Positions 1-15,430 of a stretch of 43,269 bases of DNA are shown here, piece by piece (position 1 is the first letter of the stretch; each line of letters starts with the position of its first letter). The stretch lies in NCBI GenBank assembly GCA_045586995.1, contig JAZNBI010000017.1:1-43269 (forward strand), written 5' to 3'. Origin of the DNA: Eubacteriales bacterium (GTDB lineage Bacteria > Bacillota > Clostridia > Oscillospirales > CAG-272). A program made the position numbers and the translations under genes. The notes beneath the pieces were generated by a model. The model was not told where the DNA came from and searched no databases. It saw only the letters and a list, made by a program, of their open reading frames with translations.

Positions 1-155
1 TTGCATTCCTCGTTAAATTTTCTGATTTTCTCGTCTTCCACTTCGAATAACACACGAATGAAAATCTCGCGGTTCTCTTTTGACATACCCGTAAAAAAAT
101 CATCATCTTCTGTATTTTCATCATATTGATTTGTTATTTTATCGTAATCTTTCAT
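1..155 (-). CDS. hypothetical protein, 5' part only (runs off left edge; MKDYDKITNQYDENTEDDDFF...)
   Basis: ATG at complement(153..155) preceded by GGGGA. The frame stays open to position 1. It is below the ORF-track size cutoff and has no recognisable motif. Confidence 0.3.
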   Translation of the reverse strand, partial: MKDYDKITNQYDENTEDDDFFTGMSKENREIFIRVLFEVEDEKIRKFNEEC

Positions 156-186
156 TTTTCCCCATATATCGGTGAACTGCTTAAAG

Positions 187-219
187 ATAAAAAAAGGTGC
201 GCAACCGAAGCCACGCACC
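187..219 (-). terminator. intrinsic terminator (GGUGCG..UUCG tetraloop..CGCACC + U6)
   Basis: On the minus strand the stem 219..196 encloses a cUUCGg loop and is followed by TTTTTTAT (195..187). Confidence 0.6.
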
Positions 220-396
220 GAAAAACGCGAACTCCGATTGCCGCTACGCAAACTTAAATAGATCAAGTATAAACTGTAATACTACTTAATGGATTTCGCA
301 TTTTTGCCAAATTTAAAAATAGTATTACAGAAAAAAGGTACAGTATTCCCTTGGTTGGGAATATATCCGATCTGCATAATATTAAGTTTGCGTAGC
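188..396 (-). ncRNA. candidate ~210-nt structured small RNA (class unknown)
   Basis: It lies between a consensus promoter (403..431) and the terminator (187..219). A 15-bp closing helix pairs 243-257 with 382-396. Nested inside are an 11-bp helix (CTGTAATACTA/TAGTATTACAG) and a 7-bp hairpin (TATTCCC/GGGAATA). There is no RBS-led ORF. Confidence 0.35.
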
Positions 397-402
397 TTGA
401 TT

Positions 403-431
403 ATTATACCACAGTTTTTGAGTTTTGTAAA
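403..431 (-). promoter_or_regulatory. sigma-A type promoter TTTACA-17-TGgTATAAT
   Basis: Reverse complement: -35 TTTACA (431..426), 17-nt spacer, extended -10 TGGTATAAT (411..403). Confidence 0.5.
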
Positions 432-528
432 CACATTTCGTAAATTTTAAAAAACACCTCCCGAAAAACGAACAAACCCAAGAATATCGTTTTTCTTGAC
501 AAGAACTGATTTAGTTAAAGACAACAAA

Positions 529-627
529 CGGGAGGAGCAAGCCCCTCCCCTACGATGTAAGGGGGATGTTTGCGAAGAAAGGAATGTATTTCACCGTTTG
601 CGGTAGGGGAGGGGCTTGCTCCTCCCG
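529..627. repeat. perfect 25-bp inverted repeat (CGGGAGGAGCAAGCCCCTCCCCTAC) with 49-nt spacer, then T-rich tract
   Basis: Arms 529-553 and 603-627 are exact reverse complements. Each arm is also internally self-complementary (GGGAGG/CCTCCC). Confidence 0.85.
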
Positions 628-873
628 TGTTTTATTTTTTAATTTAATTAACAAGCATAGCAAACGTGGCTACACACGATTGTGTTTTTATGTAAACGGA
701 CAGGAAGCGCACAGTCATAAAAACAATATTGTTTATCCGTGGGGACGTTCTGTGAACGCCCGCAAAGCAATGAATGTTCTCATCGCAAGGCGGGCGAATA
801 CTGTTCGCCCCTACAAATAAAATTTGGTAGATAGACAATATCTTTGCCAATTTATGTAACGGCAGGATTTTTT

Positions 874-983
874 CATAAAGTGCATACTTTTAAAACACGT
901 ATTGAAAAGCGCTTCGGAATATGATATAATAAAAAGCGTCGAAACAAGGTCTTGTAAATTAAGACTTTTCAACGCTTTTTGTG
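874..983 (+). repeat. 110-bp unit, copy 1 (promoter + long hairpin); paralog of 15248-15357
   Basis: It aligns by eye with 15248-15357 at roughly 85-90 percent identity. Several differences in the hairpin stem preserve base pairing. Confidence 0.8.
902..930 (+). promoter_or_regulatory. sigma-A type promoter TTGAAA-17-TGaTATAAT
   Basis: -35 at 902-907, 17-nt spacer, extended -10 at 922-930. It is conserved in the second copy (15276-15304). Confidence 0.5.
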
Positions 984-1148
984 TGTTGGTAGCTTTTGCG
1001 GCGCTTGGTAATGTGCAGGTGTACGCACCTTTACTTCTTCACTTTTCACTATTACCTATTACTTAAATTCCGTGCGCTGATTTAGTTAAAAGTGAATAGT
1101 GAAGAGGTAATAAGTAAAAATTCCGCACGCTCTCGCGCACGGAATTTT

Positions 1149-1192
1149 TGGCACCCGCAACGGGAATCGAACCCATAACTAACCCTTAGGAG
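1149..1192 (-). pseudogene. orphan 3' half of a tRNA-Arg(CCU) gene (anticodon loop to CCA); island attachment-site repeat
   Basis: 41 of 44 positions are identical to 15356-15399. There is no tRNA 5' half beside it. Its acceptor 3' strand TGCGGGT pairs with the orphan 5' half at 15493-15533. Confidence 0.8.
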
Positions 1193-1454
1193 TATGATTG
1201 AGGCGATTTCAGTCACCTTTATATAGCTTTAACAAATCCCCGTTAATCCCTTGTAATATAAGGAGTTAACGGGGATTACTTGTTAAGTGTTCACTTTTAG
1301 TGTTATTTAGTTTTTACCATATTCATTTTTTCTTTTGTAGGCAAAAATGTTGGCAAATGTTTTTGTTTATCAAAAATGAATATAGAAATTGATATACAAT
1401 GCATTTACTTAGATTAATTTATATTTAATTAGTCCCCATTTTAAGGAAAAAGTC

Positions 1455-1483
1455 TTGAATTTTTCAGTCGAATATGGTAAAAT
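1455..1483 (+). promoter_or_regulatory. promoter TTGAAT-17-TGgTAAAAT for the TM/GTPase operon
   Basis: -35 at 1455-1460, 17-nt spacer, extended -10 at 1475-1483. It lies about 30 nt upstream of the AAGGAGG RBS. Confidence 0.55.
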
Positions 1484-1511
1484 AATGTTGACAGTATAAG
1501 GAGGTAATTTC

Positions 1512-1742
1512 ATGGTACCCTTTGATCATAATGAAAAAAACAGACATGAATGGTTAAAAAAAGAAAAAATGCTACGCAAAACTATTATATCGATTATTTT
1601 AATTACTATTTTGCTTGTTGCAATCATTATCTGTGATGTTTTTCTTTTTCAATCTGTAATTCTGAGTATTATCTCTGCCTGTGGTTCGATTGCTTCAGTT
1701 GTAGGAATAATACTTCAACTGAAAAACAAATCTAAAGATTGA
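1512..1742 (+). CDS. small membrane protein, 76 aa, two predicted TM helices
   Basis: AAGGAGG RBS 7 nt upstream. Two hydrophobic stretches (IISIILITILLVAIIICDVFLF and VILSIISACGSIASVVGIIL). It is the first gene of a three-gene operon. Confidence 0.7.
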   Translation: MVPFDHNEKNRHEWLKKEKMLRKTIISIILITILLVAIIICDVFLFQSVILSIISACGSIASVVGIILQLKNKSKD

Positions 1743-1754
1743 TGGGAGGTTTTT

Positions 1755-2771
1755 ATGAAAATTACAATGTTGGGATTTACTTCCAGTGGAAAAACTACAT
1801 ATCTTTCTGCATTATTGGGATTATTCTATCAAGGCTCAGTTGATGGATTTTCATTTCGTGTTCCAAATAATAGAAGCGCCGAGGTTAATAAAGTAATTGA
1901 CAGAATTGATACTCTTAACAAATTTGGCGTTTTCCCAGATGCCACCGTAGGTGATATTACAAAATTAAGTCTTGAATTATATAAAAACAATAATCATTTA
2001 ATTGATTTTGAGTTTATTGATTATAGAGGCGGTGCCTTAAATGATATTGCAAAAAATGAAAATACAGATGCTACAATAGAATTGGAGACAACCATTTTAG
2101 CTAGCGATGTAGTATTAGTTTTCGTCGATGCCGTAAAACTTAACGAATGCAGAAATGATAATGTTGCTAGAAACTATTTAGGAGTTTTACCGATAACTAC
2201 TGTTCTTTCGCGCGCTAAAGAAGAAGCTGCAAAATCTAACAAAAAAATTCGTATAGTTTTTGTTCTTACAAAAACAGATGCTAGTACACTTATAAACACA
2301 AGTATCCAAAGTTTGAAAACAAGAGTAAAATCTCTTTATTCTAATCTATATTTGCGTTTTGGGCAAGAAGCAGACGAATTCAAAATTTATGATATCGGAA
2401 CAGTTGGAAAACACTGTGTTCAAACCAACACTCAATGGAAGATTGAAAATGGTATTCGAACTCTAATTTGCGATAATCAAATAACGGACATGAACTTTAG
2501 ACCCTTTAATATTGCCGCAGTTTTTGCCCAAGCTTTATTAGAAAGTATTAACAATTCTGAATATAGTTCGGAAATACTTTCAAACCTGTTAATAGCCAAA
2601 GAATCTAATTTTGGGAAATTAAGGCAGTTGTTTGATATACTATTTAATAAGAGTTCTCGCCGATTAGAAATTCGAGATATAAAAGCAACTCTTGAAGAAA
2701 GCAGAAGAAACCTTGCAAGATTAAAATCTTACAATTTAGAGTTAATAAGAATTACACGAAGTGGGCGATAA
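1755..2771 (+). CDS. P-loop GTPase (TRAFAC-like: G1 GFTSSGKT, G3 DYRGG, G4 TKTD) with helical C-terminal tail
   Basis: GGGAGG RBS. The G motifs are in canonical order. There are no Era/Der/Obg-type accessory domains. Confidence 0.75.
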   Translation: MKITMLGFTSSGKTTYLSALLGLFYQGSVDGFSFRVPNNRSAEVNKVIDRIDTLNKFGVFPDATVGDITKLSLELYKNNNHLIDFEFIDYRGGALNDIAKNENTDATIELETTILASDVVLVFVDAVKLNECRNDNVARNYLGVLPITTVLSRAKEEAAKSNKKIRIVFVLTKTDASTLINTSIQSLKTRVKSLYSNLYLRFGQEADEFKIYDIGTVGKHCVQTNTQWKIENGIRTLICDNQITDMNFRPFNIAAVFAQALLESINNSEYSSEILSNLLIAKESNFGKLRQLFDILFNKSSRRLEIRDIKATLEESRRNLARLKSYNLELIRITRSGR

Positions 2772-2775
2772 TGAA

Positions 2776-3453
2776 ATGAAAAAAATTATTTCATCAAATA
2801 TTTTATTCACGCGAACTCTTCAACTCGATTATCGTTGGATATATTGGGATGAGAACATATCTGACATTGATAAGTATGTTTTTAATCAAGAAATTAAAAA
2901 GTTTGAAAATGATAAATTTTTTTTCCTACAAAACAATCATTTGTTTTGTAGGAAATTAACCAATGGAATTGCATTATACAAATTTTTTGATACACAAAAA
3001 TTTGATTCAAACATGAGAAAAATATATGCACTTTCTGGTTTTTTATTCTTAGGCAAACAATGTGATATAGCATATGATGTGTTAAGTTCCATTACGGCGG
3101 ATGCTTTTTTGAACCTTGAATGCAACAGTGAAGAGATATATGATAATACACAAAAGCAAAATAAATTTTCAGACTATCCAATACAATCGTTGTATAATAA
3201 GCTTTTTTTAGAGAATCAAACATCTTTATTGAACGTAAAAAAAGAGATAGAAATGTTTCTTATGTGTCATGAAAATAAGAATGGTTTTCTTATTTTTGAA
3301 AGGAATGAGCAATTGAACTTTTCCGAATTTGAAGATTTAGATTTATCTTCTCGAACAAACCAGCCAACATCAACTGCTACGGGCATCAAAGATAATAAAA
3401 AGAGTAAAGTATCCAAAAGAAAAAAGAAACGATTTTTTCTTTTAGGAAAATGA
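2776..3453 (+). CDS. hypothetical protein, 225 aa, Lys-rich C-terminus, no recognised domain
   Basis: The ATG is 4 nt after the GTPase stop (the track's GTG at 2761 overlaps that gene). It is the last gene before a 20-bp terminator hairpin. Confidence 0.65.
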   Translation: MKKIISSNILFTRTLQLDYRWIYWDENISDIDKYVFNQEIKKFENDKFFFLQNNHLFCRKLTNGIALYKFFDTQKFDSNMRKIYALSGFLFLGKQCDIAYDVLSSITADAFLNLECNSEEIYDNTQKQNKFSDYPIQSLYNKLFLENQTSLLNVKKEIEMFLMCHENKNGFLIFERNEQLNFSEFEDLDLSSRTNQPTSTATGIKDNKKSKVSKRKKKRFFLLGK

Positions 3454-3511
3454 ATAATAGAATTAAATAAGATTCTATGTTTTCAAAATGAATATTAAAT
3501 GAAATCAATAC

Positions 3512-3557
3512 AAAACACCTATTTGATATCTGGTTTTAGATATCAAATAGGTGTTTT
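3512..3557. terminator. bidirectional terminator, perfect 20-bp stem (AAAACACCTATTTGATATCT/AGATATCAAATAGGTGTTTT)
   Basis: It lies between convergent operons. The A/T runs that supply the U-tracts on both strands lie within the stem ends. Confidence 0.8.
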
Positions 3558-3603
3558 GGTTATTATTTTCTTTGGTGCTTTAATTGCTATTTTGGTTGTT
3601 TAA

Positions 3604-3939
3604 TTATTTCAATGTTGCTCCCGTAGCATCCACATTAATTTTTTGGGTCAAAATCATAATACCTTCTATAAGTCCCCAAATACTTCCTACTCCACAACAG
3701 AATACAGATAAAAGAATCTGTATAATAGCTTTAACGTGGAATCCGAGATAGAAGTTATGTACTCCGAAACCACCGAGGAAGATTCCCAACAATCCTGCAG
3801 TAACGCGCTTCTTAGCACCGACTCTTACATTTGCTTGGGGGGCAGCCGCCTCCGGCATAGGCTGCTTTTCTCCGCATTCATCACAGAAAACGGCAGAATC
3901 CTCTAATTCTACACCACATTTTACACATCTTTTACTCAT
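3604..3939 (-). CDS. zinc-ribbon + TM2-domain membrane protein (111 aa)
   Basis: N-terminal CVKCG...FCDECG zinc ribbon. TM2-like motif GIFLGGFGVHNFYLG. GAGAGG RBS. Confidence 0.75.
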   Translation of the reverse strand: MSKRCVKCGVELEDSAVFCDECGEKQPMPEAAAPQANVRVGAKKRVTAGLLGIFLGGFGVHNFYLGFHVKAIIQILLSVFCCGVGSIWGLIEGIMILTQKINVDATGATLK

Positions 3940-3954
3940 TGTTTTTTTTACCTC

Positions 3955-6252
3955 TCAATCGTTAATTTTTGTTCCGCATTTACTGCAAAATTTCTTTCCT
4001 TCTTTGATGATGCCACCGCACTTTTTGCATATAAGAGCCGAAGCTGTGTTTTCGGCTTTTTTATCTGTAAATGCTTTCTTTTTTGCGGTAGAGCTGTTTG
4101 TTGGTGTTCCACAGTGTTGACAGAATTTTTTTGTTGATATTATTTTTTGATGACAATTACTGCATTCAATCCAAACATCTTCACTTTCCTGCGTCGTAAT
4201 TTCTTGTGCGGTTGTCTTCGTTTTTTCTGACTCAGTAAAGCTATGACCGCATACTGTGCAGAATTTTGATGATGGCTTCAAATGGCTCTGGCATATAGGA
4301 CAAATTATAGATTCAACAAATGTGCCGTCAGACTGCATAAATCTATGACACTTAGGACAACTCAATTCGTTTGGCAACAGGTACGTGCCGCATATACAAA
4401 TAACGCTATCTTTATAAATTCGATCTATTTGGGTGAGTTTTTCTTTGTCAATATTTTGAATTGTGAATATAAGCTTAGTCAATAACTCAGCCATTTGGTT
4501 TTGAAGGTTGATTGACAAATTCATACCTAAAGTGAAACGATGTACCCGCTTATTATTAACATTACCTTCCGTACCGCACAATCCAGATATGGCATTTATA
4601 AAATGAAGTTCATATTTGTCTTGTCCTAAGCATTCAACAGATTTAATATTGTACAAGTCAAATATAACATTTTCCTTTGACATAAATGAGCCATTATAAA
4701 TTCTTATATTTTTATTTGTAATTACAAATCCCGATTTTCCATCTCGTTTTTCTGTAAGAACTCCAGACGGACGTCCATAAAATAGTATTATAACCTCATT
4801 TTCTGACAAGCCGCTATATTCTTTGACTAATGAATATTTATTTCGTATTCCATTATTGATTCTCTCAATTTCTATATAAGTGCGGAAATTACTCGGGTAG
4901 TTTGTATCACATAAAATCTGATTTAAATTGTCAAACAGTAAGTATGGCGTACGCAGAACAAATTCTTTTTCTATACGAGTTTCCAAGCTTTCTTTAAAAT
5001 GTTGCGATTTGTATATTTGACTACGTATCAATGTTAACGTGGCTTCACGATCGGATATATCACATTTATTGAATGCGGTATAGAAAATATCAATATCGTG
5101 GTGTACCGCTTGTGCTTCATCAATCGTATCATATGTTATACCTTCTACTGTTCGTTTGGATCTATCAACAAGCTCTAAGATGTCACAATATTTTTTATAA
5201 TATTTCGTAGTCGTATATGAAATTGTATGTGAATCACAAAATTCTTTGAGATTTTTTAATGCTTCCTTAATATCTTCCTCACATACAATCGCCGCCTTGA
5301 TAGGATTATTAGAAGAATTATAAGTGCCACAATACCTACTATCATTTTCTTCCGCAAAATCTTCGCAATATCTTGATATATATTCTTTTAATCCCGTATG
5401 GAAATCGACGGACATTCTTACCAAATCACCACTGTGATCTCCGTAATCAAACCAAATCTCTCGATATACGTCCTTATTGTATGGATCTAATTTTAATATT
5501 TCCAACAAAAAAGACAGCTTTTCTTTGATCGGAATAGCTCTAAGATTATTCATCATAGCTTTGGCTTTTGCGGCTTCTTCGTCAGAAACTGTGCGAAAAT
5601 CAAACGGACCTTCATCGCGCATTGATTCCATCAATGCAAATTGTACACATAATACTGTACATTTAGTACAATCAGATAATTCTGATTTATAATAATCATA
5701 AACCTTCGATTTTTGGCTTGATGCTGCAATAGAACTGCCGATATTTCCGAAAGCGTTAACCACACTGTGTCCAAGCCCAGAAACAGCATTCATTGCCCCT
5801 GCACCCATTGCTCCCTTGATTGCCCCACTCATTCCAAAGCCTCCGCCAACCCAACGTCCACGAGAGTCTTTTCGAGCACGCCGATAGTTTGCCGCTGCTT
5901 GCTGATCTCCTTCTATTTCTGCAATCTTATGCATCATTTCGGCACTCATATCGTCAAGATCATCAAAAACATCCGTCAAATATTTTTTCTTAAACAAAGT
6001 TCTATCAATTGAATAAATTTTATTGTTTGTTAAAGTTGAGATACATTCATCAAGCAGTGGCGAAAGAATCTTGTATTTTATTTCATCAAGATTTTGATAA
6101 ACAGCTTTACAACCATATTGCTCAGAATACCACTCTCTAAACTGACTTGGAATAGAATCAAAGAAGGGCAAAAACATATTTTCGATATATCTATAATTCT
6201 CCATATCAGTTTGAATGGTAATAGTCGTTCCGTGTATATCATAAGTTGTCAA
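3955..6252 (-). CDS. 765-aa protein: unknown N-terminal region, Gly/Ala glycine-zipper-like segment, PH-like segment, four C-terminal zinc ribbons
   Basis: TTG start with an AAAGGTGG RBS. It contains GGGFGMSGAIKGAMGAGAMNAVSGLG and four CxxC..CxxC units (CICG..CPKC, CPIC..CTVC, CSNC..CQHC, CKKC..CSKC). Confidence 0.7.
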   Translation of the reverse strand: MTTYDIHGTTITIQTDMENYRYIENMFLPFFDSIPSQFREWYSEQYGCKAVYQNLDEIKYKILSPLLDECISTLTNNKIYSIDRTLFKKKYLTDVFDDLDDMSAEMMHKIAEIEGDQQAAANYRRARKDSRGRWVGGGFGMSGAIKGAMGAGAMNAVSGLGHSVVNAFGNIGSSIAASSQKSKVYDYYKSELSDCTKCTVLCVQFALMESMRDEGPFDFRTVSDEEAAKAKAMMNNLRAIPIKEKLSFLLEILKLDPYNKDVYREIWFDYGDHSGDLVRMSVDFHTGLKEYISRYCEDFAEENDSRYCGTYNSSNNPIKAAIVCEEDIKEALKNLKEFCDSHTISYTTTKYYKKYCDILELVDRSKRTVEGITYDTIDEAQAVHHDIDIFYTAFNKCDISDREATLTLIRSQIYKSQHFKESLETRIEKEFVLRTPYLLFDNLNQILCDTNYPSNFRTYIEIERINNGIRNKYSLVKEYSGLSENEVIILFYGRPSGVLTEKRDGKSGFVITNKNIRIYNGSFMSKENVIFDLYNIKSVECLGQDKYELHFINAISGLCGTEGNVNNKRVHRFTLGMNLSINLQNQMAELLTKLIFTIQNIDKEKLTQIDRIYKDSVICICGTYLLPNELSCPKCHRFMQSDGTFVESIICPICQSHLKPSSKFCTVCGHSFTESEKTKTTAQEITTQESEDVWIECSNCHQKIISTKKFCQHCGTPTNSSTAKKKAFTDKKAENTASALICKKCGGIIKEGKKFCSKCGTKIND

Positions 6253-6324: not shown

Positions 6325-6353
6325 ATTATATCATATTTTTTCGCTCATGTCAA
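6325..6353 (-). promoter_or_regulatory. consensus promoter TTGACA-17-TGaTATAAT for the 765-aa/TM2 operon, back-to-back with the XRE promoter
   Basis: Reverse complement of 6325-6353. The plus-strand -10 TATAAT at 6371-6376 probably serves the XRE gene. Confidence 0.6.
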
Positions 6354-6400
6354 TATCTTTTCTTTTGGGGTATAATATTACTATGGAAAGAGGTGAAGAC

Positions 6401-6637
6401 ATGAAGCTGATATATGAATCGGAATATATGCAACTTGGGCTTAAAATTGCGTATTACAGAAAGCTACGGGGATTGACACAGGAGCAGTTGGCGGAGAAAA
6501 TCGACCGCACTCCCGCGTTTATCGGTCATGTCGAAGCACCGAACATCAATAAAGCGGTGTCTCTTGATACTCTATTCGATATCGCTCACGTTTTGGATAT
6601 TCCCGTATATAAATTCCTTATGTTTGACGAAACGTAA
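6401..6637 (+). CDS. XRE-family HTH transcriptional regulator (78 aa)
   Basis: HTH_3-like YYRKLRGLTQEQLAEKIDRTPAFIGHVE. GAAAGAGGTGA RBS before ATG 6401; the track start at 6347 lacks an RBS. Confidence 0.8.
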   Translation: MKLIYESEYMQLGLKIAYYRKLRGLTQEQLAEKIDRTPAFIGHVEAPNINKAVSLDTLFDIAHVLDIPVYKFLMFDET

Positions 6638-6731: not shown

Positions 6732-7826
6732 ATGAAAGAAAACATTTGCGCCATCTGCAACAGGCCGTTTGCAGAACACGAACTGACCGAATTTGACGAC
6801 CATTTGTTTTGTAAGAGTTGTCTCGCAGAACAGACCGTCCTTTGTCACGAATGCGGTGATCGAATCTACCGTAGTCAGAATGAAGGAACAAGCGATATCC
6901 CTCTCTGTCAAGATTGTTATGATGACCACTACACGCATTGCGAACGTTGCGGTAGGATGATTCATAACGATGCGGCTCACTACATCGACGATAGTGATTA
7001 TCCCTATTGCCGCTCCTGCTATGAGATTGAATGTGACCGCAGTATCAAGGAGTACAATTACAAACCCGATCCGATTTTCTATGGTGACGGTAACAGATTC
7101 TTCGGTGTGGAGCTTGAGATCGACGAGGGCGGTGAGGACGATTCCTCGGCAGAGGATGTGATGTACGCCGGCAACCGCTCAGACGAGCATATTTACTGTA
7201 AGCACGACGGTTCTTTGCAGGACGGATTTGAGATCGTCACACACCCTATGACGTTGGAATATCATATGGCAATTATGCCATGGAAGGACATTACCGACAA
7301 GGCGCGTAAGCTCGGCTATACTTCACATCAAGCTGAGACGTGCGGCTTACATATCCACGTCAACCGCACAAGCTTTGGCGAGAACGCAGAAGCACAGGAC
7401 GAGGCAATCGGGCGCATCTTGTATTTTGTAGAGCGTAATTGGAACGAGCTTTTGATCTTTTCACGCAGAACACAGGAGCAGCTTAACAGTTGGGCGCGCC
7501 GCTACGGATATAAGGATCAGCCGAAGGAAATGCTTGAACACGCCAAGAAAGGCTATGACGGCAGATATACCTGTGTCAACCTTACAAACTATTCTACAAT
7601 CGAATTTCGCATCTTCCGAGGCACTTTGAAATCAAATACCATTCTCGCCACCCTGCAGTTGGTCAACCACATCTGCGAGGTGGCTGTTTCTTTGTCAGAC
7701 GAGGAAGTACGCCACCTCTCTTGGAGTCGTTTCGTAGATCTGATTACCGAGCCGGAGCTGATTCAGTACCTCAAAGAACGCCGCATTTATATCAACGAAT
7801 CAATAGAAACGGAGGAAGAAATATAA
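6732..7826 (+). CDS. amidoligase-family enzyme (glutamine-synthetase-like fold) with N-terminal Cys-rich zinc-finger array
   Basis: GGAGG RBS at ATG 6732. Six CxxC pairs lie in the first ~95 aa. Amidoligase_2-like motifs follow: FGVELEIDEGG, HDGSL..GFEIVTHP, CGLHIHVNR, EFRIFRGT. Confidence 0.75.
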   Translation: MKENICAICNRPFAEHELTEFDDHLFCKSCLAEQTVLCHECGDRIYRSQNEGTSDIPLCQDCYDDHYTHCERCGRMIHNDAAHYIDDSDYPYCRSCYEIECDRSIKEYNYKPDPIFYGDGNRFFGVELEIDEGGEDDSSAEDVMYAGNRSDEHIYCKHDGSLQDGFEIVTHPMTLEYHMAIMPWKDITDKARKLGYTSHQAETCGLHIHVNRTSFGENAEAQDEAIGRILYFVERNWNELLIFSRRTQEQLNSWARRYGYKDQPKEMLEHAKKGYDGRYTCVNLTNYSTIEFRIFRGTLKSNTILATLQLVNHICEVAVSLSDEEVRHLSWSRFVDLITEPELIQYLKERRIYINESIETEEEI

Positions 7827-8764
7827 TGTGCTGTCTGTTTGGAATCTTGGATTACGGAAACACTTTGACCGTCCGACAGCGGACAAAAATCTTGTCAATA
7901 CTTGCATCATCTTGCGAGGTCAGAGGCACGGATGCAACGGGAATCGCTTACAATACCGATTCGCATTTGACTATCTACAAACGCCCAAAAACCGCTCACA
8001 AAATGTGGTTTCGTCTACCTGTGGATGCCAACGTCATTATGGGACACACCCGCATGACAACACAGGGCAACGAAAAATTCAATCAGAACAACCATCCCTT
8101 TTATGGGAGGGTCGGAAATACGCCCTTTGCCCTTGCGCATAACGGAATGCTGATGAATGACGACGAGCTTCAAAAGAAATACCGTCTGCCCAAAACCAAC
8201 ATTGAAACCGATTCCTACGTGGCGGTTCAGCTATTGGAAAGGCAGACGGATCTGTCATTTGAAAGTATGGCAAAGGTCGCAGAGGAGTTGGAAGGCTCGT
8301 TCACGTTGTCGATGCTTGACAACACGAACAACGTCTATTTCGTCAAGGGCAACAATCCGCTCTGCCTTTATTATTGGCGTGAACGGAATTTGTATATCTA
8401 TGCCTCAACAGAAGAAATATTGAAGTCAGCACTCGCTCGTATCCCCTATAATTTCGGCATTGCGGAGAGCATTGAGATCAATGAGGGAGATATGATGAAG
8501 ATATCCCCAAGCGGTTCGCGTGAGACGTCGCAGTTCTCTTTGCAGAATCTTTACGCATACGGATATTATGGATATCCGTATAGATATTTTCTTGATGAAT
8601 GGGATGATGTTGAGCCAAAGGAAACAGGGCGGTCATACAAGGACATTCTAAAATCTATGGCACACACCTTCGGCTACACCGCCGAGGACGTGGACGCTTT
8701 GCTCGCGGAAGGATTCACCTTGCAGGACATTGAAGATTTCTTCTATGAAGGAGTGTACTGTTAG
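7826..8764 (+). CDS. class-II (Ntn, N-terminal Cys) glutamine amidotransferase-like protein
   Basis: The start overlaps the upstream stop (TAATG). The N-terminus is MCCLFGIL. Other motifs: GTDATGIAY, GHTRMTTQG, NNHPF, AHNGML.N. Confidence 0.75.
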   Translation: MCCLFGILDYGNTLTVRQRTKILSILASSCEVRGTDATGIAYNTDSHLTIYKRPKTAHKMWFRLPVDANVIMGHTRMTTQGNEKFNQNNHPFYGRVGNTPFALAHNGMLMNDDELQKKYRLPKTNIETDSYVAVQLLERQTDLSFESMAKVAEELEGSFTLSMLDNTNNVYFVKGNNPLCLYYWRERNLYIYASTEEILKSALARIPYNFGIAESIEINEGDMMKISPSGSRETSQFSLQNLYAYGYYGYPYRYFLDEWDDVEPKETGRSYKDILKSMAHTFGYTAEDVDALLAEGFTLQDIEDFFYEGVYC

Positions 8765-8914
8765 GGTACACCCTATTGAGAGAATCACAAAGTATGCTAA
8801 TAGAGTCGGTTTCGGCATTTTGGAATATGCCATTTGTAAGACCAACCCTATTGAGAATTTGGATTTTTGAGCGTTGCAGTCGTTGGATGATTTCGATTTC
8901 CGCCAAGGCGTAAT

Positions 8915-8945
8915 ATTACTGTTCACGCATCGTGTGAACAGTAAT
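8915..8945. repeat. perfect 12-bp inverted repeat ATTACTGTTCAC-n7-GTGAACAGTAAT upstream of the recombinase gene
   Basis: Exact palindrome arms at 8915-8926 and 8934-8945. No T-run follows, so it is more likely a protein-binding site than a terminator. Confidence 0.6.
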
Positions 8946-9009
8946 TGCGGAAAGCGAAATCAGACGACGATCTGCAGGAGCGAAAAAATCATTATGAAAG
9001 GAAAGAATT

Positions 9010-9558
9010 ATGAAAATCGGATATATACGAATCAGCACCACGGATCAGAATACCTCTCGACAGGAGGTGTTGATGAAAGAACTTGGTGTAGAACAGGTCT
9101 ATATTGACCGTATGAGCGGCAAGAACACCGACCGCCCGGAGTTAAAGCGGATGATGAATTTTGTGCGCGAGGGTGACGAGGTAATTGTGGAATCCATAAG
9201 CCGCTTTGCAAGGAACACCCGTGACCTTTTGGATCTCGTTGAGCAGCTTACGGCAAAAGGCGTTGAGTTCATATCTAAAAAGGAAGCTATTGACACGACA
9301 ACGCCCACTGGCAAATTTATGCTTACCGTCTTTGGCGCGGTTGCCGAACTTGAACGTGAATACACGTTGCAGAGGCAAAAGGAAGGTATTGCGATCGCAA
9401 AGGAAAACGGCATTTACAAGGGACGAAAGCCAATTGAGCGTGATAACTTCGCTTCAGTCGTTTCTCTTTGGAAACAAGAAAAAATCACGGCTGTGGAGGC
9501 AATGAAGCGGCTGAATATGAAACCGAGTACATTTTACAGAAAGGTAAAATCATTATGA
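9010..9558 (+). CDS. small serine recombinase (resolvase/invertase family, 182 aa)
   Basis: N-terminal MKIGYIRISTTDQ with the catalytic Ser context. Also VESISRFARNTRD and a C-terminal HTH. Confidence 0.85.
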   Translation: MKIGYIRISTTDQNTSRQEVLMKELGVEQVYIDRMSGKNTDRPELKRMMNFVREGDEVIVESISRFARNTRDLLDLVEQLTAKGVEFISKKEAIDTTTPTGKFMLTVFGAVAELEREYTLQRQKEGIAIAKENGIYKGRKPIERDNFASVVSLWKQEKITAVEAMKRLNMKPSTFYRKVKSL

Positions 9559-9899
9559 GAGTAATTATTGTTGAACCATACAAAGAGCCATACGAAAAAG
9601 AAATCAACGGAAAGCTGAAAACCTTGCAAGGCTTCGTGGGCGGCTTGATACAAGTGCTATATCCATTTGAGGACGAGCATATTGCCCTCATTTGCAACGA
9701 CGAAGGAAAGCTGCTCGGATTACCGCTTAACCGCGCTCTACGCAATAAGCGCGGCGAGATATATGACATTGTGAGCGGCACGTTCCTGCTTTGCTCTGCA
9801 CCGCCTACAAGTCCACACTTTGAAAGTCTGTCGGACGAGCAGATACAGAAATACATTCAGAAATTCAAAAATATAGAAATTTATATTCGGAGGAAATAA
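9555..9899 (+). CDS. DUF3846-like protein (114 aa)
   Basis: ATGA overlap with the recombinase stop. The motif run VIIVEP..LQ..VGG.I..VYPF.D..ALICNDEGKL.GLPLNRAL is typical of DUF3846. Confidence 0.6.
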   Translation: MRVIIVEPYKEPYEKEINGKLKTLQGFVGGLIQVLYPFEDEHIALICNDEGKLLGLPLNRALRNKRGEIYDIVSGTFLLCSAPPTSPHFESLSDEQIQKYIQKFKNIEIYIRRK

Positions 9900-9901
9900 T
9901 T

Positions 9902-10000
9902 ATGCATTGGACATTACTTGGATTTGTAGTCACCTTGGCGGTACTCTGTGTAATGGAGTTCTGCGGCTCACGCCGCAGAAAGAAAGGGTGCTGCTGTTGA
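9902..10000 (+). CDS. mini hydrophobic peptide, 32 aa (MHWTLLGFVVTLAVLCVMEFCGSRRRKKGCCC)
   Basis: GGAGG RBS 8 nt upstream. One TM-like helix and a basic, Cys-rich tail. Below the track cutoff. Confidence 0.4.
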   Translation: MHWTLLGFVVTLAVLCVMEFCGSRRRKKGCCC

Positions 10001-10249: not shown

Positions 10250-10365
10250 TGTGTCAATGTGTCAGTGTCACAGGATATTTTCTTTTTATCCTTATATATT
10301 TCTCGTCAAAAATATGCTATAATAGAGGAAAATAAAAGTATGTGTGACACTGACACATTGACACA
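10250..10365. repeat. perfect 23-bp inverted repeat (TGTGTCAATGTGTCAGTGTCACA) bracketing a 70-bp promoter-bearing segment
   Basis: Arms 10250-10272 and 10343-10365 are exact reverse complements. Each arm contains three GTGTCA units. Confidence 0.9.
10315..10323 (+). promoter_or_regulatory. extended -10 element TGcTATAAT inside the IR-bracketed segment, facing the 490-aa gene
   Basis: TG at 10315-10316 and TATAAT at 10318-10323. The -35 is weak (TATATT, 17-nt spacing). The RBS AAGGAG (10365-10370) lies just outside the right arm. Confidence 0.45.
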
Positions 10366-10377
10366 AGGAGAAAAGCA

Positions 10378-11850
10378 ATGGATAAACGGATGAAATATTA
10401 TGATATGGATTGTCAATATCCATCTAATGATGCTAATTTCAAATTAACGCTATCAAGCTTGTGCGAAGAGATAATTAAAGATTGTTATACTGATGAAAAA
10501 ATAATAATTGAGTCCTCGGTTAGAGATAAAATCAAAAATTCTAAAAAATCTGGTTTGATTGATAGGTTAAAAAAACAACTTAACTTTGATGTTGAGGCAA
10601 TATCTAAAGGAAACAAGAATGAGATCTTTGACGAATATAAGCTCTTGAAGTTATTGTACTTAATAGAACATAAAGGCTTTTCATATAATGAAAAAGAATA
10701 TGGTAAATTTCCAGTTATAGATTTGCTTTCTAATCCTCGACTTGAAAATGTTCATACTGTTTTTTCTGTCAATGACCATTATGGGGACACATATGAGTAT
10801 TTGTGCAATTCTATTGCGCCATTCGTAAAAGATATTGAAAAACGATGTAAGTTAATACAGCAAGTATCTTCCGACTGGGAGAAAACAGTACTCAATTTTT
10901 TGTATTTCTTTGTTTCTGATATAGCGATAGATTCTTTATGGAGTAATATTTTTTTACTTGACCGTGTTTACTACTATTTGAAAGAAATAATTGAACCTCT
11001 ATTGAAAACAAATATAGAAGAAAATCATAATTGTTATAAAGAAGGGGTATTAAACACTTTTTATAATATTTTGATTTGCTATTATTTCAAGTGCAATGAA
11101 AACGATCGGATTATTAATGCGAGTAACGTTCAATATGTTCTTATGGACTTAAATTACATTGAAAAATATAAAATGTATGATAATATATTTATCCCAATGG
11201 AATTTATTGAAGATGTAAAAAAGTTCTTGTTAGGAAAACACATAAACAACTCCAATGTTAATAAATTTATGGAATTAATTTTCTATAAGAAGGAATTTAC
11301 CGATGATTATGTAAAAAACGTTCTATATGCATTGGATCATGTTGAATCTTATTGGGAAATAGTAAAAAAAGCCAAAAATGCAAGTGATACTGAAATGTGC
11401 TTGGGTATACTTGTTTCTATTGTTCAAGAAATAATATATATGAAAGAAACTAAACCCCAAATAATCAATACTTTTTTAGGACATGAGAACGCACAAAAAT
11501 CGTTATTGAGAATCATATCCTCTCCGAATAAAGAAAATGGGATTGGCTTTCAAATATTGAGAGATCGATTGGAAAACAGGGTAAGCATCAATACGGGCGG
11601 ACGAGAATTGATTGTTCGTGCGAGGATAATACAGAAAGAAATATATAGAATCAAGAAACTCATATTCAGCTATCAAAATATCGAAGATATTATCGAAATT
11701 CACAATATTATACACACCACTGTTGTTAATTTATTTAAAATGGGACGAATAGATACAAATATATTAAAAATGGATTTAGAAAATCAACTTAGTGCTTTTT
11801 TCGAAAAAACAAAAAACTACCATTCAAAACCCAAAGAAAAAACAGAATAG
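10378..11850 (+). CDS. hypothetical protein, 490 aa, very AT-rich, no recognised domain
   Basis: Long ORF with an AAGGAG RBS, followed by a strong terminator. It looks predominantly helical by composition. Confidence 0.7.
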   Translation: MDKRMKYYDMDCQYPSNDANFKLTLSSLCEEIIKDCYTDEKIIIESSVRDKIKNSKKSGLIDRLKKQLNFDVEAISKGNKNEIFDEYKLLKLLYLIEHKGFSYNEKEYGKFPVIDLLSNPRLENVHTVFSVNDHYGDTYEYLCNSIAPFVKDIEKRCKLIQQVSSDWEKTVLNFLYFFVSDIAIDSLWSNIFLLDRVYYYLKEIIEPLLKTNIEENHNCYKEGVLNTFYNILICYYFKCNENDRIINASNVQYVLMDLNYIEKYKMYDNIFIPMEFIEDVKKFLLGKHINNSNVNKFMELIFYKKEFTDDYVKNVLYALDHVESYWEIVKKAKNASDTEMCLGILVSIVQEIIYMKETKPQIINTFLGHENAQKSLLRIISSPNKENGIGFQILRDRLENRVSINTGGRELIVRARIIQKEIYRIKKLIFSYQNIEDIIEIHNIIHTTVVNLFKMGRIDTNILKMDLENQLSAFFEKTKNYHSKPKEKTE

Positions 11851-11859: not shown

Positions 11860-11906
11860 AATAATACCGTAAGGAGCCGGCGACCTTGCGGTATTATTTT
11901 ATTTTT
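11860..11906 (+). terminator. intrinsic terminator, 15-bp stem + T-run
   Basis: AATAATACCGTAAGG / CCTTGCGGTATTATT (one G-U pair), followed by TTTATTTTT. Confidence 0.8.
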
Positions 11907-11916
11907 GGAGGAAAAT

Positions 11917-13533
11917 ATGAAAAACAAAGAAACTCATAATCCTAATATGGATTTAAAAGTTATGGAAGAACCAATGATCTTTTATGATGACTATGGCACA
12001 CCTTTAAAATCACCAATGATTTTCTATAATGGTCCTTTAAATCCAGATTATCCCTTACCACCCATACCCACATTGGGTAAAGAGTACTATAAAAATCTCT
12101 TTTCATATGATAAAGCAGAGCAAAAGAGCAAACCACCGCTGATTGTAAAAGCTCAAATAGTGACAGGAACAGAATCAACCTCAAATATTCAAACGACCGA
12201 TGCGAAGAAGAATTCAAAAAAAGGAAAAGAGGGTGACAACTCTGAAACTGTAACTATTTCAGCACAGTATGCATTGGTGCAAGAGTTTCTGCAAAAGAAA
12301 AGCGTTCGTATTGTAAACGAAGTAATATTTATGTACTTTGATAATTCTTATTATGAAATATCTTTTATTAATCTTAAGCGTGAGCTTTTTGATTGTTTAC
12401 GCAACAAATTAAAATACTATCCCAGTAGCTATGTAGATTCAGTTGCAAATTTTATGCTAAAAGAAAAAAGAATATGCTTTAAACAAAAAGATATTTCAAA
12501 AGAGTATATTGCCTTTAACAATTGTCTCTTAAATATTGCAACTGGACAATGCTTACCACATACACCTAATATTTTTACAACATATAAAATCGAAGCGGAT
12601 TATTATAAGTACGAATCACCCACCCCTCTTTTTGATAATTTTCTATGGAAATCAACTGGTGGGGATCGTGTTTTAATTGAAAGAATTTGGCAAGTGATCG
12701 GATATATTTTAACACCAGATGTTTCTGCCAAAAAATATTTTCTCTTGCAAGGAGTTAGAGACTCAGGAAAAAGTGTTTTGGTTCGTGTCCTGGAAGGATT
12801 ATTTAATGATGATGCAGTAACAGGATTAGACATATCTGAATACGGTCAAAGATTTTCTATGGCAAGTATTATTGGAAAAGCCTTGTGCACAAGCGCAGAT
12901 ATGGAAGGCAAAATAATTGATCTAACATCTGCAAGCAAAATAAAACAACTTACTGGAAACGATACCACAACAACCGATGTTAAATATGGCAAACGAGAAA
13001 AATTTGTTTGTTCAGCTAAACTAATTTTTGCCACAAATCATCCATTTAGAGTTTCCGTTCCAGATCCCGCATTCTTTTCACGGTGCGTAGCAATCCCATT
13101 TTACTATTCTATTCCAAACGAAAAGAAAGATGTTCATCTGGATATAAAGTTATTACAAGAACGTAACGGCATTGTTTTTAAGGCAATTGCAGCTTATAGG
13201 AGATTGGTGGCAAGGAATTATGTTTTTGAAGGTCACTATAGTAAGGATGAAATATTTGCTATGGATGCGGATGACAAAGAAACATATCAAATGTCAATTT
13301 CAAAATTTGCTAAATATTATTTTACAAATGACGAAAACGGTATTGTTTTTATTGAAGATGCCCATCAATTATTTCTGCAAAAATATGGATATGCACCACT
13401 CAACGACTTTTCATATCTGTTTCAAGAATTTGTTAGAGAAAATTATAACGCGCAAAAGGCGAGGAAACGAAAAGCTGGTAATCCTAATGCTCAGAGTTGC
13501 ATTTTGGGGATTTCACTAAAAGAGAGGTGCTAA
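11917..13533 (+). CDS. phage/plasmid primase P4-family C-terminal domain / D5-like SF3 helicase protein
   Basis: GGAGG RBS at ATG 11917. Walker A FLLQGVRDSGKS. Also KQLTGNDTTTTDVKYGK...KLIFATNHPF...FFSRCVAIPF, which is typical of the family. Confidence 0.8.
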   Translation: MKNKETHNPNMDLKVMEEPMIFYDDYGTPLKSPMIFYNGPLNPDYPLPPIPTLGKEYYKNLFSYDKAEQKSKPPLIVKAQIVTGTESTSNIQTTDAKKNSKKGKEGDNSETVTISAQYALVQEFLQKKSVRIVNEVIFMYFDNSYYEISFINLKRELFDCLRNKLKYYPSSYVDSVANFMLKEKRICFKQKDISKEYIAFNNCLLNIATGQCLPHTPNIFTTYKIEADYYKYESPTPLFDNFLWKSTGGDRVLIERIWQVIGYILTPDVSAKKYFLLQGVRDSGKSVLVRVLEGLFNDDAVTGLDISEYGQRFSMASIIGKALCTSADMEGKIIDLTSASKIKQLTGNDTTTTDVKYGKREKFVCSAKLIFATNHPFRVSVPDPAFFSRCVAIPFYYSIPNEKKDVHLDIKLLQERNGIVFKAIAAYRRLVARNYVFEGHYSKDEIFAMDADDKETYQMSISKFAKYYFTNDENGIVFIEDAHQLFLQKYGYAPLNDFSYLFQEFVRENYNAQKARKRKAGNPNAQSCILGISLKERC

Positions 13534-13777: not shown

Positions 13778-15169
13778 ATGTCAATCAGACAAAGGGGTAA
13801 CCGCTATCAAGTGAGCTATCGTTGCCCCGGGGAAAGCTCGCCCCGTACAGAAACATTCAAAACCGAGGAAGAGGCTTTGATACGCGAAGCACAGATTCGT
13901 CTTGCCAAGAAAAACGGCTCGTTTGAGCCGCCTACAAGGCTTTCTAAAAACATAATCAAGCAAGTGAAAGATATTACTGTAAGCGACTTCTTAAAGGAAT
14001 TTATAGAGGAATACGGGTTGAAGAAATGGGGCAATTCTTATTATTCCACCAATCTCGGACTCATTAAGAATTATATTGATCCGTTTATCGGGGAACGGTA
14101 CGTGCGTTCGATCACCGTTCGTGATATAGATTCCTACTACACAATGTTGCTTGGTGTTTCTGCGGTTCTACCCGCAGGACACAAGGACACGGGAGAAAAG
14201 GTTACGGCAAGTACGATCGCTCGCATACATAAGCTACTGAAAAGCGCATTCGGCAAGGCGGTAGTATGGGAGTACACCAAGATCAATCCTACACTTGGAG
14301 CAACGCTACCACAGCAACGCACACAGGAGAGGGCGGTATGGTCTGATTCCGAAGCTCTACAGGCTTTGAATCTTTGTGAGCATCCCACGCTAAAAATTTG
14401 TCTGTATCTTGCACTCGGATGCAGTATGCGCCTCGGTGAAATATTGGGATTACAATGGAAAAACGTGCATATGTCTCCCTCTGATATTGGATCGGGAGAG
14501 CCGTATTTGAAAGTAGATCGTGAGCTTCAAAGATGCCGTAATGACAGCATCGAGGTTTTGGAGAGGGTGAACCGCAGTACGATCATCACAAAATTTCCCG
14601 CAGTAATGCCTAAAAAATCTACTACAACATTGGTATTGAAAGCACCAAAGACCGAGAGCAGTAACCGCACAATATATTTACCAAATGCGGTGATTGCAGA
14701 GTTGCAGAAAGTGAAAGCCGAGCAAGAAAAATACAAAGCTATGCTTGGCAACGAATTTCGGGACTATGATTTAGTCATAGCACAGATTAACGGTCGTCCG
14801 TTTGAGATTCGCACGATCGACCGTTGGTTTTATGAACTGATTGAGAAACACTCCTTACGTCCCGTTGTATTTCACAGTTTGCGCCACAGTAGCACGTCTT
14901 TGAAGCTAAAACTAAGCCGTGGTAATATTAAGGCGGTTCAAGGTGACACAGGACACGCCGAGGCTCGTATGGTTACGGACACATACGCCCACGGATTTGA
15001 CGAGGATAGAAAGCTGATCGCAAAGGAAATGGATTCGGGATTTTTCTCTAAAGTTGGCGACAAAATGGCTACTACTCCGCTTACAGATGATACGTTAGAA
15101 AAGCTCAAATTATTGATTCAAGAGCGTCCCGAGCTCTTGAATGAACTGTTGGAAAAGTCAAGTAGATAA
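13778..15169 (+). CDS. int: tyrosine-type site-specific integrase
   Basis: AAGGAGG RBS. N-terminal arm-binding-like domain. Catalytic context MRLGEILGL, FHSLRHSSTS and GHAEARMVTDTYAH. Confidence 0.9.
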   Translation: MSIRQRGNRYQVSYRCPGESSPRTETFKTEEEALIREAQIRLAKKNGSFEPPTRLSKNIIKQVKDITVSDFLKEFIEEYGLKKWGNSYYSTNLGLIKNYIDPFIGERYVRSITVRDIDSYYTMLLGVSAVLPAGHKDTGEKVTASTIARIHKLLKSAFGKAVVWEYTKINPTLGATLPQQRTQERAVWSDSEALQALNLCEHPTLKICLYLALGCSMRLGEILGLQWKNVHMSPSDIGSGEPYLKVDRELQRCRNDSIEVLERVNRSTIITKFPAVMPKKSTTTLVLKAPKTESSNRTIYLPNAVIAELQKVKAEQEKYKAMLGNEFRDYDLVIAQINGRPFEIRTIDRWFYELIEKHSLRPVVFHSLRHSSTSLKLKLSRGNIKAVQGDTGHAEARMVTDTYAHGFDEDRKLIAKEMDSGFFSKVGDKMATTPLTDDTLEKLKLLIQERPELLNELLEKSSR

Positions 15170-15237: not shown

Positions 15238-15247
15238 GAATTTGTTG

Positions 15248-15357
15248 CATAAATTGCATACTTTTTAAACACATATTGAAAACTGTTCTGAAATATGATA
15301 TAATAAAAAGCGTCGATAAAAGTCTTGTAAATTTAAGGCTTTTCGACGCTTTTTATG
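15248..15357 (+). repeat. 110-bp unit, copy 2 (promoter TTGAAA-17-TGaTATAAT at 15276-15304 + hairpin 15309-15350), abutting the tRNA 3' end
   Basis: Paralog of 874-983. On the minus strand the hairpin plus T-run doubles as the tRNA terminator. Confidence 0.8.
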
Positions 15358-15430
15358 GCACTCCCAACGGGAATCGAACCCATATCTAACCCTTAGGAGG
15401 GGTTTATTCTATCCATTAAACTATGGGAGC
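15356..15430 (-). tRNA. tRNA-Arg (anticodon CCU), CCA encoded
   Basis: Cloverleaf drawn by hand. Acceptor GCTCCCA/TGGGAGT, D-arm GTTT..GAAT, anticodon arm AACCC-CTCCTAA-GGGTT, T-arm ATGGG-TTCGATT-CCCGT. Confidence 0.85.

Follow-up and report, generated by a model that had tools for sequence, protein, structure and literature searches.

DO-GTPases ('double-GTPases') were defined computationally in 2020, under the name 'System 2: GTPase-centric systems', as the central proteins of predicted conflict systems, in which the GTPase is accompanied by a GAP1 protein encoded downstream, by a further component (GASH or FNIII) and by variable effectors (Kaur, Burroughs, Iyer & Aravind 2020, eLife 9:e52696, PMC7159879). 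The GAP1 proteins combine a GAP1-N1 or GAP1-N2 domain with GAP1-M and GAP1-C domains; the N1 type goes with a helical GASH protein and the N2 type with an FNIII-repeat protein, and effectors fused to the GAP1 C-terminus have been described (PMC7159879). Tandem paralogous GTPases are found in 38% of these systems, N-terminal zinc ribbons in 60% and N-terminal transmembrane (TM) segments in 13%, while 67% include TM components, among them the SLATT two-TM (2TM) effectors (PMC7159879). The systems were predicted to be elaborate, often with 5-10 genes (PMC7159879). In the literature searched, only this defining study discusses the DO-GTPase family as a system. Here, we analyse a three-gene unit, hereafter the trio, which lies near one end of a contig of a Eubacteriales bacterium (JAZNBI010000017.1; the window is this whole stretch of 43,269 nucleotides, nt) and is built around a single member of this family. 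We regard the trio as a small candidate anti-phage module, and not as a wholly new kind of system.

The trio consists of three co-directional open reading frames (ORFs) at 1512-3453, which encode proteins of 76, 338 and 225 amino acids (aa) and are separated by gaps of 12 nt and 4 nt. Its features are the following:

1455..1483, + strand: candidate sigma-70-type promoter, TTGAAT-17-TG-n-TAAAAT (9/12 matches, TG before the -10 element)
1498..1504, + strand: AAGGAGG ribosome-binding site, 7 nt before the ATG of ORF1 (direct reading)
1512..1742, + strand: ORF1, 76-aa 2TM hairpin protein, proposed membrane effector or anchor (ORF, hydropathy, synteny)
1755..2771, + strand: ORF2, 338-aa single-copy TRAFAC GTPase of the DO-GTPase family (Pfam, invariant motifs, AlphaFold2 model, Foldseek)
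2776..3453, + strand: ORF3, 225-aa DO-GTPase partner protein (profile family, AlphaFold2 model, Foldseek, synteny)
3511..3558, no strand assigned: hairpin with a perfect 21-bp stem, candidate intrinsic terminator for both directions, serving the trio and the convergent genes at 3604-6252(-) (folding)

ORF2 is a member of the DO-GTPase family with intact guanine-nucleotide motifs. It scored 56.0 bits with the Pfam profile PF19993 (DO-GTPase2) and 30.6 bits with PF19975 (DO-GTPase1), for a cutoff of 27 in both cases, and the same precomputed Pfam matches are present in most of its homologues. A reading of the locus made earlier from the letters alone (the sequence-only reading) had pointed to a resemblance to the conflict-system GTPases of Kaur and colleagues, and these scores bear it out. 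Its description of the locus as an undescribed GTPase-centred system was overstated, since both the family and the concept of a DO-GTPase with a partner and a TM effector were described computationally in 2020 (PMC7159879).

The G1, G3 and G4 motifs that the sequence-only reading had listed are all present: G1 is G7-x4-G12-K13-T14, G3 is D89-Y-R-G92 and G4 is T172-K173-T-D175. The P-loop residues (G7, G12-K13-T14), the switch-I T64, D89-x-x-G92 and K173-x-D175 are invariant among 20 homologues. The position equivalent to Gln61 of Ras is occupied by a Gly (G93), and a near-invariant Arg lies within G3 (DYRGG). The Walker B glutamate reported to be conserved in DO-GTPases (Kaur et al. 2020, PMC7159879) has an ambiguous counterpart in ORF2. 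The Walker B D89 is invariant, and further acidic residues stand at position 87 (E here, mostly D in the homologues) and at position 97 (D here, mostly E).

Housekeeping GTPases (Era, Der/EngA, Obg, EF-Tu) were tried as candidates for ORF2 and rejected, as there was no NCBIfam equivalog and no such Pfam family above threshold. Matches to generic GTPase models stayed below their thresholds (small_GTP P-loop, 19 bits vs 42.5; MMR_HSR1, 14.5 bits vs 21.9). The protein is thus a TRAFAC GTPase without a housekeeping assignment, as had been proposed. Searches of PADLOC, NCBIfam and PHROGs gave no usable match for ORF2, and a sequence-profile search of the PDB with its GTPase family returned only noise.

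The AlphaFold2 model of ORF2 has a predicted local distance difference test (pLDDT) score of 87.9 and a predicted template-modelling score (pTM) of 0.90. Its parts are a G domain, a beta-hairpin insert (222-243) and C-terminal helices of about 85 aa (253-336), of which the last is a long one (309-336); the helical tail of about 110 aa expected from the sequence is therefore shorter in the model, and it starts only after the insert. When we compared the model with known structures using Foldseek, the matches were GTPase G domains: EF-Tu, aIF2-gamma, a RagA-like protein of Asgard (Loki) archaea, EngA, YcjX and LeoA. The best template-modelling scores (TM-scores) were those of YcjX and LeoA, at 0.41-0.42 (YcjX, TMq 0.42). 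ORF2 resembles the dynamin-like defence GTPases LeoA/LeoBC ('Eleos') and YcjX in being a large TRAFAC GTPase that has helical extensions and a link to membranes. However, it is much shorter, lacks a stalk or paddle, and matches neither Pfam Dynamin_N or DUF463 nor any PADLOC model.

ORF3 had been presented as an orphan. On the contrary, 107 relatives were retrieved when 1.84 billion cluster representatives were searched with a profile, and this family is tied to DO-GTPases. The near-invariant residues of the family (R13, D18, Y19, R20, W21, D77, R81 and G88) all lie within the first ~90 residues, beyond which the family is hypervariable. An in-frame GTG at 2761 is a possible start; the homologues begin at the equivalent of the ATG at 2776. 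In the AlphaFold2 model (pLDDT 78.5, pTM 0.75), the N-terminal 'SRT..DYRW' alpha/beta domain (residues ~1-113, strand/helix order b-b-a-b-b-b-a-a) is followed by a small second alpha/beta domain (~125-190). The polybasic tail that comes after them, ending in RFFLLGK, is disordered (pLDDT < 50 from residue 191). A short basic-hydrophobic C-terminal peptide is found in most family members (KRKKKRFFLLGK in the window, GFFARLFRKK in the locus L001), and is possibly a membrane-targeting or partner-docking tail.

In the loci examined, a member of the ORF3 family always lies directly 3' of a DO-GTPase gene. Longer and more distant relatives (322-430 aa) come from genes that directly follow a single DO-GTPase-like gene in the loci L016, L017, L018/L019 and L020. 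The N-terminal motif, (Y/F)(S/G)RT..D(Y/F)R followed by D..R.(I/V)Y..G, also recurs in the partner proteins of tandem-GTPase operons. It is carried by the two partners (397 and 464 aa) of the HSP70-containing tandem operon of L011, with an E-value of 1.5e-4 in hhalign and of 4e-7 in hmmsearch, and by those (375 and 486 aa) of L021, a Calothrix plasmid. One member of the family (P0086, 426 aa, from a JGI metagenome) has a C-terminal Uma2-like domain, i.e., a restriction-endonuclease fold, matched with E = 4e-5 and below the Pfam cutoff. This fusion resembles the published effectors fused to GAP1. Another relative has a zinc-ribbon-like C-terminus. The N-terminal domain of ORF3 is thus conserved as the genomic companion of DO-GTPases, whether these are single or in tandem. 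Given the synteny with DO-GTPases, the motif in the tandem-operon partners and the Uma2 fusion, we consider ORF3 to be a conserved DO-GTPase partner that takes the role of GAP1 in the systems of Kaur et al.

ORF3 and its relatives had no match in Pfam, PADLOC, NCBIfam, PHROGs or PDB sequence profiles. The PDB profile search with the ORF3 family gave zero matches, two further homologues were likewise without a PADLOC match, and the comparison of the ORF3 model with the viral structures of BFVD using Foldseek gave nothing significant. Its best structural match in the PDB was TagF, a post-translational regulator of type VI secretion (PDB 9t0n, 6iz8; E = 7.4e-4, probability 0.99, TM-score 0.37, identity 11%). 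The two proteins share a two-domain alpha/beta organisation in which the conserved N-terminal domain could be a protein-binding regulatory surface. Yet, no PDB chain was matched by ORF3 in sequence-profile searches, and its context includes no type VI secretion system.

Non-significant Foldseek matches were of the longin type (AP sigma, Nprl and a Loki roadblock-longin protein; E 0.3-0.6, probability < 0.3). Longin and roadblock domains are classic modules of small GTPases, where they act as GTPase-activating proteins (GAPs), guanine-nucleotide exchange factors (GEFs) or platforms (PMC3521125, PMC3747258). ORF3 is like such platforms (MglB, DENN, GATOR1 Nprl2/3, Ragulator) in the strand/helix order of its N-domain and in its genomic lock to a small GTPase; it differs from them in showing no sequence similarity, and the analogy is only functional. 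In the literature searched we found no support for TagF having a longin or DENN fold, and the longin idea therefore rests on the strand/helix order and on the Foldseek matches just given. We propose a longin-like GTPase regulator as a hypothesis for ORF3, derived from its predicted structure.

The third protein of the trio, ORF1, has two hydrophobic helices by hydropathy (residues ~25-46 and ~49-70), in agreement with the two TM segments proposed in the sequence-only reading. They are joined by a 2-residue loop and have basic flanks on both sides. The conserved N-terminal stretch, predicted to be cytoplasmic, reads W-x3-E-x3-R, and its E18 and R22 are invariant. SLATT 2TM effector domains were reportedly described by Burroughs and colleagues in 2015, and are covered by the Pfam families SLATT_1 to SLATT_6. 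ORF1 is like them in its 2TM hairpin, in its short cytoplasmic N-terminal helix and in sharing an operon with an NTPase switch. However, with 76 aa it is shorter than the models it weakly matched, SLATT_1 (132 positions, E = 0.067) and SLATT_5 (192 positions, E = 0.24), both below threshold; SLATT_4 was matched in 2 of 7 homologues. The PADLOC profile CARF_TM matched ORF1 with E = 1.2e-5, in the TM region only. These SLATT and CARF_TM matches, like those to holins, are weak and below threshold, differ among the homologues and stand amid many unrelated TM families.

The sequence-only reading had made its proposal depend on the three genes occurring together outside this genome. We found genes for an ORF1-like protein, a GTPase and an ORF3-like protein in the same order in nine independent contexts (the window, L001, L003, L006, L007, L008, L009, L013 and L015). 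Every locus with a close GTPase and enough flanking sequence has a gene for a 2TM protein of 74-90 aa directly upstream and one for an ORF3 homologue of 214-281 aa directly downstream. A local table of hidden Markov model matches confirmed the order at the nine loci, with ORF1 kept in all of them. These contexts belong to Clostridia or to unassigned metagenome contigs only, and each lies on a mobile element or at the edge of one.

The flanks of the trio are wholly different between loci. In L001 it is found at the end of a prophage, where a holin and two serine recombinases precede it, and in L003 it comes after a Rep_ORF2-G2P gene and is followed by an ABC ATPase matching PADLOC mad3 (E = 1e-30). 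In L006, where the trio genes overlap, as they do in L008, the unit stands between a caspase with two ThsB-like TIR genes, which directly precede it, and an integrase. A transposase adjoins it in L007. It stands between an 87-aa MobC-like and a 471-aa relaxase-like ORF in L015, and about 470 nt upstream of an 87-aa ORF resembling Phd/YefM-type antitoxins in L013 (in both loci these labels were given by eye, without a profile). This is the pattern of exchangeable cargo on mobile elements, with a conserved colinear cassette that moves between unrelated contexts. Distant relatives also come with TM proteins: in L020 a 106-aa 2TM protein is encoded upstream, and in L018 a TM protein downstream. 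On plasmids, searches with blastn using the GTPase or the whole block gave no relatives; the matches from tblastn were confined to distant tandem-GTPase operons of three cyanobacterial plasmids.

These plasmid operons encode several GTPases and are found in L021 (positions 103-5773 of plasmid pCAL6303.02 of Calothrix sp. PCC 6303) and on plasmids of Anabaena sp. 90 and Geminocystis. Their gene order is GTPase, partner, GTPase, GTPase, partner, and the partners carry the ORF3-type N-terminal motif. DO-GTPase systems were described as nearly absent from cyanobacteria (Kaur et al., PMC7159879). Tandem DO-GTPase operons of the classical type that include MreB/HSP70-like genes were also found on two unrelated metagenome contigs (L010, 8819-12494, and L011, 10680-12984), in both cases beside pairs of dynamin-like GTPases. 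This may be a recurrent neighbourhood of GTPase-GTPase defence.

Compared with the DO-GTPase systems of Kaur et al., the trio is similar in several respects. ORF2 passes both Pfam models and has its partner gene directly downstream. The partner has a variable C-terminus and an N-terminal motif common to the operon partners of tandem DO-GTPases. There is a TM component, 2TM effectors being a described theme, and the neighbourhood is mobile and variable. The differences are also clear. The trio has one GTPase, and ORF2 starts at strand 1 and the P-loop, without a zinc ribbon or TM segment; tandem GTPases, zinc ribbons and TM segments are common features of the family but not universal ones. ORF2 has a beta-hairpin insert that is absent from the aligned tandem forms. 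The ORF3 partner has just 225 aa and no Pfam match, and the trio includes neither a GASH or FNIII-repeat protein nor accessory genes for tubulin, HSP70, kinases or nucleotide signalling. Its hosts are Clostridia of the gut/anaerobe type, where it resides on small mobile elements.

What is already known is thus the GTPase family and the concept of the system, as computational predictions only. The compact architecture is new, with a single GTPase devoid of zinc ribbons, a short partner that no profile matches, neither GASH nor FNIII, and a 2TM protein with a gene of its own, and so is the restriction of this compact form to small mobile elements of Clostridia. Also new is the definition of the ORF3 partner family (107 cluster representatives), which has no model in the copies of Pfam, NCBIfam, PADLOC and PHROGs that we searched. 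A profile of this family would improve the annotation of DO-GTPase systems.

We think it somewhat probable that the trio constitutes a minimal DO-GTPase conflict system, whose components are a switch, its partner and an effector at the membrane. Its role in defence or abortive infection, proposed from genomic context only, and the membrane-effector step are put forward as hypotheses. ORF2 would act as a nucleotide-dependent switch. Since it has a Gly at the position of Ras Gln61, an Arg in G3 and a C-terminal coiled coil, it is probably activated by dimerisation or by a partner and not by intrinsic catalysis. ORF3 would bind the GTPase via its 'SRT..DYRW / D..R.IY..G' surface, as a regulator or sensor equivalent to GAP1, and its variable C-terminal half and basic-hydrophobic tail would provide specificity and proximity to the membrane. 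The trigger could be infection by a phage or the entry of a competing element. Once triggered, the complex of GTPase and partner would license oligomerisation of the ORF1 2TM hairpin, and the oligomer would permeabilise or depolarise the membrane, aborting the infection.

Other explanations of the same cassette have to be weighed. The trio could serve the mobile element itself, in entry or superinfection exclusion, maintenance or stress signalling, with ORF1 as an anchor instead of a toxin. All its contexts are mobile elements or their edges, and it lies between the MobC-like and relaxase-like ORFs (labelled by eye) of L015 and directly after the Rep gene of L003. Pairs of a GTPase and a membrane protein exist outside defence: YcjX, a structural match to ORF2 (TMq 0.42), pairs with the membrane protein YcjF. 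Yet, completely different flanks are typical of exchangeable cargo and not of a core function of an element, the caspase with TIR genes and the mad3-like ATPase stand beside the trio in two contexts, and the GTPase family is defined by the hallmarks of conflict systems (PMC7159879). We therefore hold service to the element to be rather unlikely. The relation of the effector to the partner can also be read differently: the variable C-terminal half of ORF3 would be the effector, and ORF1 only a membrane tether. Hypervariable C-termini among the ORF3 relatives, including the Uma2 nuclease-like and the zinc-ribbon-like ones, are what this would lead one to expect, and there is a precedent in the effectors that Kaur et al. 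described at the GAP1 C-terminus (PMC7159879). In the window, however, the C-terminal part of ORF3 has no enzymatic domain and ends in a disordered polybasic tail, while ORF1 is retained in all nine close trios, which makes this arrangement improbable here.

Slightly less probable still is an addiction module of the toxin-antitoxin kind, in which a holin- or Hok-like ORF1 toxin would be held in check by the GTPase and ORF3 and would stabilise the island without sensing phages. The size and 2TM hairpin of ORF1 suit such a toxin, as do its weak holin-like and SLATT-like matches, and the genes are tightly coupled, with gaps of 12 and 4 nt in the window and overlaps in L006 and L008; the antitoxin-like ORF (by eye, Phd/YefM type, 87 aa) downstream of the trio in L013 points the same way. 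But known antitoxins make do with far less than a GTPase of 338 aa and a partner of 225 aa. Moreover, distant relatives replace or move the TM protein and keep the pair of GTPase and partner. Because this pair persists while the TM protein changes, the conserved core is a switch and not a toxin with its antidote.

Several results weigh against the interpretation of the trio as a minimal DO-GTPase conflict system. There is no experimental study of the DO-GTPase family in the literature searched. We found no GAP1, GASH or FNIII Pfam domain in the trio or in 108 relatives of ORF3, so that two of the published defining components are undetected in the trio. Neither did GASH or FNIII profiles match the adjacent genes of the window or the listed neighbours of L001-L009. 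For GAP1, no match was found at any threshold in ORF3, in the 108 relatives or in the partners of L010 and L011, in a search that had no positive control; Pfam presumably contains GAP1 models. The absence of a named system that the sequence-only reading wanted checked was upheld in part: no model of PADLOC-DB v2.0.0 matches ORF2 or ORF3, but the GTPase itself belongs to the catalogued Pfam DO-GTPase family. The assignment of ORF1 to SLATT is unproven, as its sub-threshold and inconsistent matches are typical of TM bias, and the similarities of ORF3 to TagF (TM-score 0.37) and to longins (E ~0.3-0.6) in the model comparisons are weak.

The distribution of the trio adds to these points. Known defence genes are found beside it in only two of the nine contexts. 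The close GTPase family is very rare, with 20 clusters (336-346 aa) among 5.8 billion, and a pattern-limited scan of 185,579 species genomes found it in three metagenome-assembled genomes (MAGs), all from Clostridia: one of Acutalibacteraceae, one of Defluviitaleaceae and one labelled 'Clostridia bacterium'. No close GTPase is present in the phage genomes (GenBank, tblastn) or IMG/VR viral contigs searched.

A bolder view is that the 'SRT..DYRW' domain of ORF3 is an unrecognised but widespread prokaryotic regulator of DO-GTPases, a GAP or GEF resembling longin, DENN or TagF, and the trio the smallest known self-sufficient GTPase-switched immune module that kills through the membrane. We consider this doubtful. 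If true, it would reveal a bacterial analogue, on mobile elements, of the eukaryotic logic that links small GTPases, longin regulators and membranes. The trio in any case offers a practical experimental entry point to DO-GTPases, as it takes 2.1 kb, three small proteins, one candidate promoter and one terminator. It opens the questions of whether DO-GTPases confer immunity to phages or plasmids, whether the partner is a GAP, a GEF or a sensor, and whether the 2TM hairpin is the executioner.

The block at 1455-3558 is one transcription unit and the terminal cargo of an island integrated in a tRNA-Arg gene. The ORFs, their gaps, the ribosome-binding site, the hairpin and the attachment (att) repeats agree with the earlier description of a self-contained three-gene unit at the integrase-distal end of a tRNA island. 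The promoter motif claimed for it is present, with TTGAAT and TAAAAT separated by 17 nt and a TG before the latter. However, promoter-like sites occur at chance density in this AT-rich region (17 found vs 15.7 +/- 3.6 expected), and the promoter at 1455-1483 is therefore plausible without having statistical support. The hairpin, which lies between convergent genes, was correctly described as perfect, but its stem has 21 bp instead of the 20 reported. The arms (3511-3531 and 3538-3558, 21 nt each) are 100% complementary and separated by 6 nt. Folded as RNA, the hairpin has a free energy of -33 kcal/mol (z = -9.8 vs shuffles); terminator-like sites numbered 10, vs 1.2 expected.

The island spans 14.2 kb in tRNA-Arg(CCT) and is bounded by 48-nt direct repeats, 1145-1192 and 15352-15399, which are 92% identical. 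The features that define it and its other genes are:

1145..1192, - strand: left att repeat (island boundary), partial copy of the tRNA-Arg 3' part, 48 nt (direct repeat and sequence)
3604-6252, - strand: two genes for zinc-ribbon proteins, convergent to the trio
6347-6637: gene for a helix-turn-helix regulator
6735-8764, + strand: pair of an amidoligase and a class-II glutamine amidotransferase
9010-9558: gene for a small resolvase
11905-13533: D5_N/DUF5906 primase-helicase-like gene
13778..15169, + strand: tyrosine integrase of the island, beside the tRNA gene and at the opposite end from the trio (Pfam Phage_integrase and Phage_int_SAM_3)
15356..15430, - strand: tRNA-Arg(CCT), integration target, the 3' part of which (15352-15399) is the right att repeat (ARAGORN; Rfam, 62 bits; repeat)

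The att repeats and the integrase at 13778-15169 place the trio at the integrase-distal end of the island, as its terminal cargo, and the att copy there is about 260 nt away. GC content is 0.30-0.32 across 1001-4000, which includes the trio, vs 0.45-0.48 at 7001-10000 (amidoligase block) and 0.46 at the integrase; the trio is indeed more AT-rich than these two blocks, as had been noted.

The island carries further cargo. A second pair of genes, at 6735-8764(+), encodes an Amidoligase_2 protein with a Cys-rich (LIM-like) N-terminal region and, after it, the class-II glutamine amidotransferase; PADLOC gave a match for neither. The convergent unit at 3604-6252(-), with which the trio shares its hairpin terminator, encodes a 111-aa membrane protein with a zinc ribbon and a TM2 domain (3604-3939(-)) and a 765-aa protein with at least four C-terminal zinc ribbons and an N-terminal domain that is not recognisable (3955-6252(-)). 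This unit may be further conflict cargo.

We also observed several repeats within and around the island. An inverted repeat of 37 nt (10250-10365; TGTCA/TGACA-rich, 84% complementary, arms 42 nt apart) lies directly upstream of an ORF of 490 aa that has no annotation (10378-11850) and of the D5_N/DUF5906 primase gene, and could be the island's origin or an operator. Another one, of 21 nt (1235-1277; 86% complementary, arms 1 nt apart), is found between the left att repeat and the promoter of the trio and could be an insulating terminator or an arm site of the recombinase. Past the intact tRNA gene, its 5' half is copied at a distance of about 100 nt in a 75-nt direct repeat (15390-15464 and 15493-15567, 72% identical). 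Because ARAGORN and Rfam both call one tRNA only, the copy at 15493-15567 is a degenerate tRNA fragment. Finally, a stretch of 116 nt downstream of the tRNA (15242-15357), including its terminator hairpin, is duplicated with 80% identity at 868-983, outside the left att repeat, and about 160 nt of unrelated sequence (983-1145) separate the duplicate from the partial tRNA. This arrangement suggests that the duplicate is the scar of an older integration or recombination at a tRNA hotspot.

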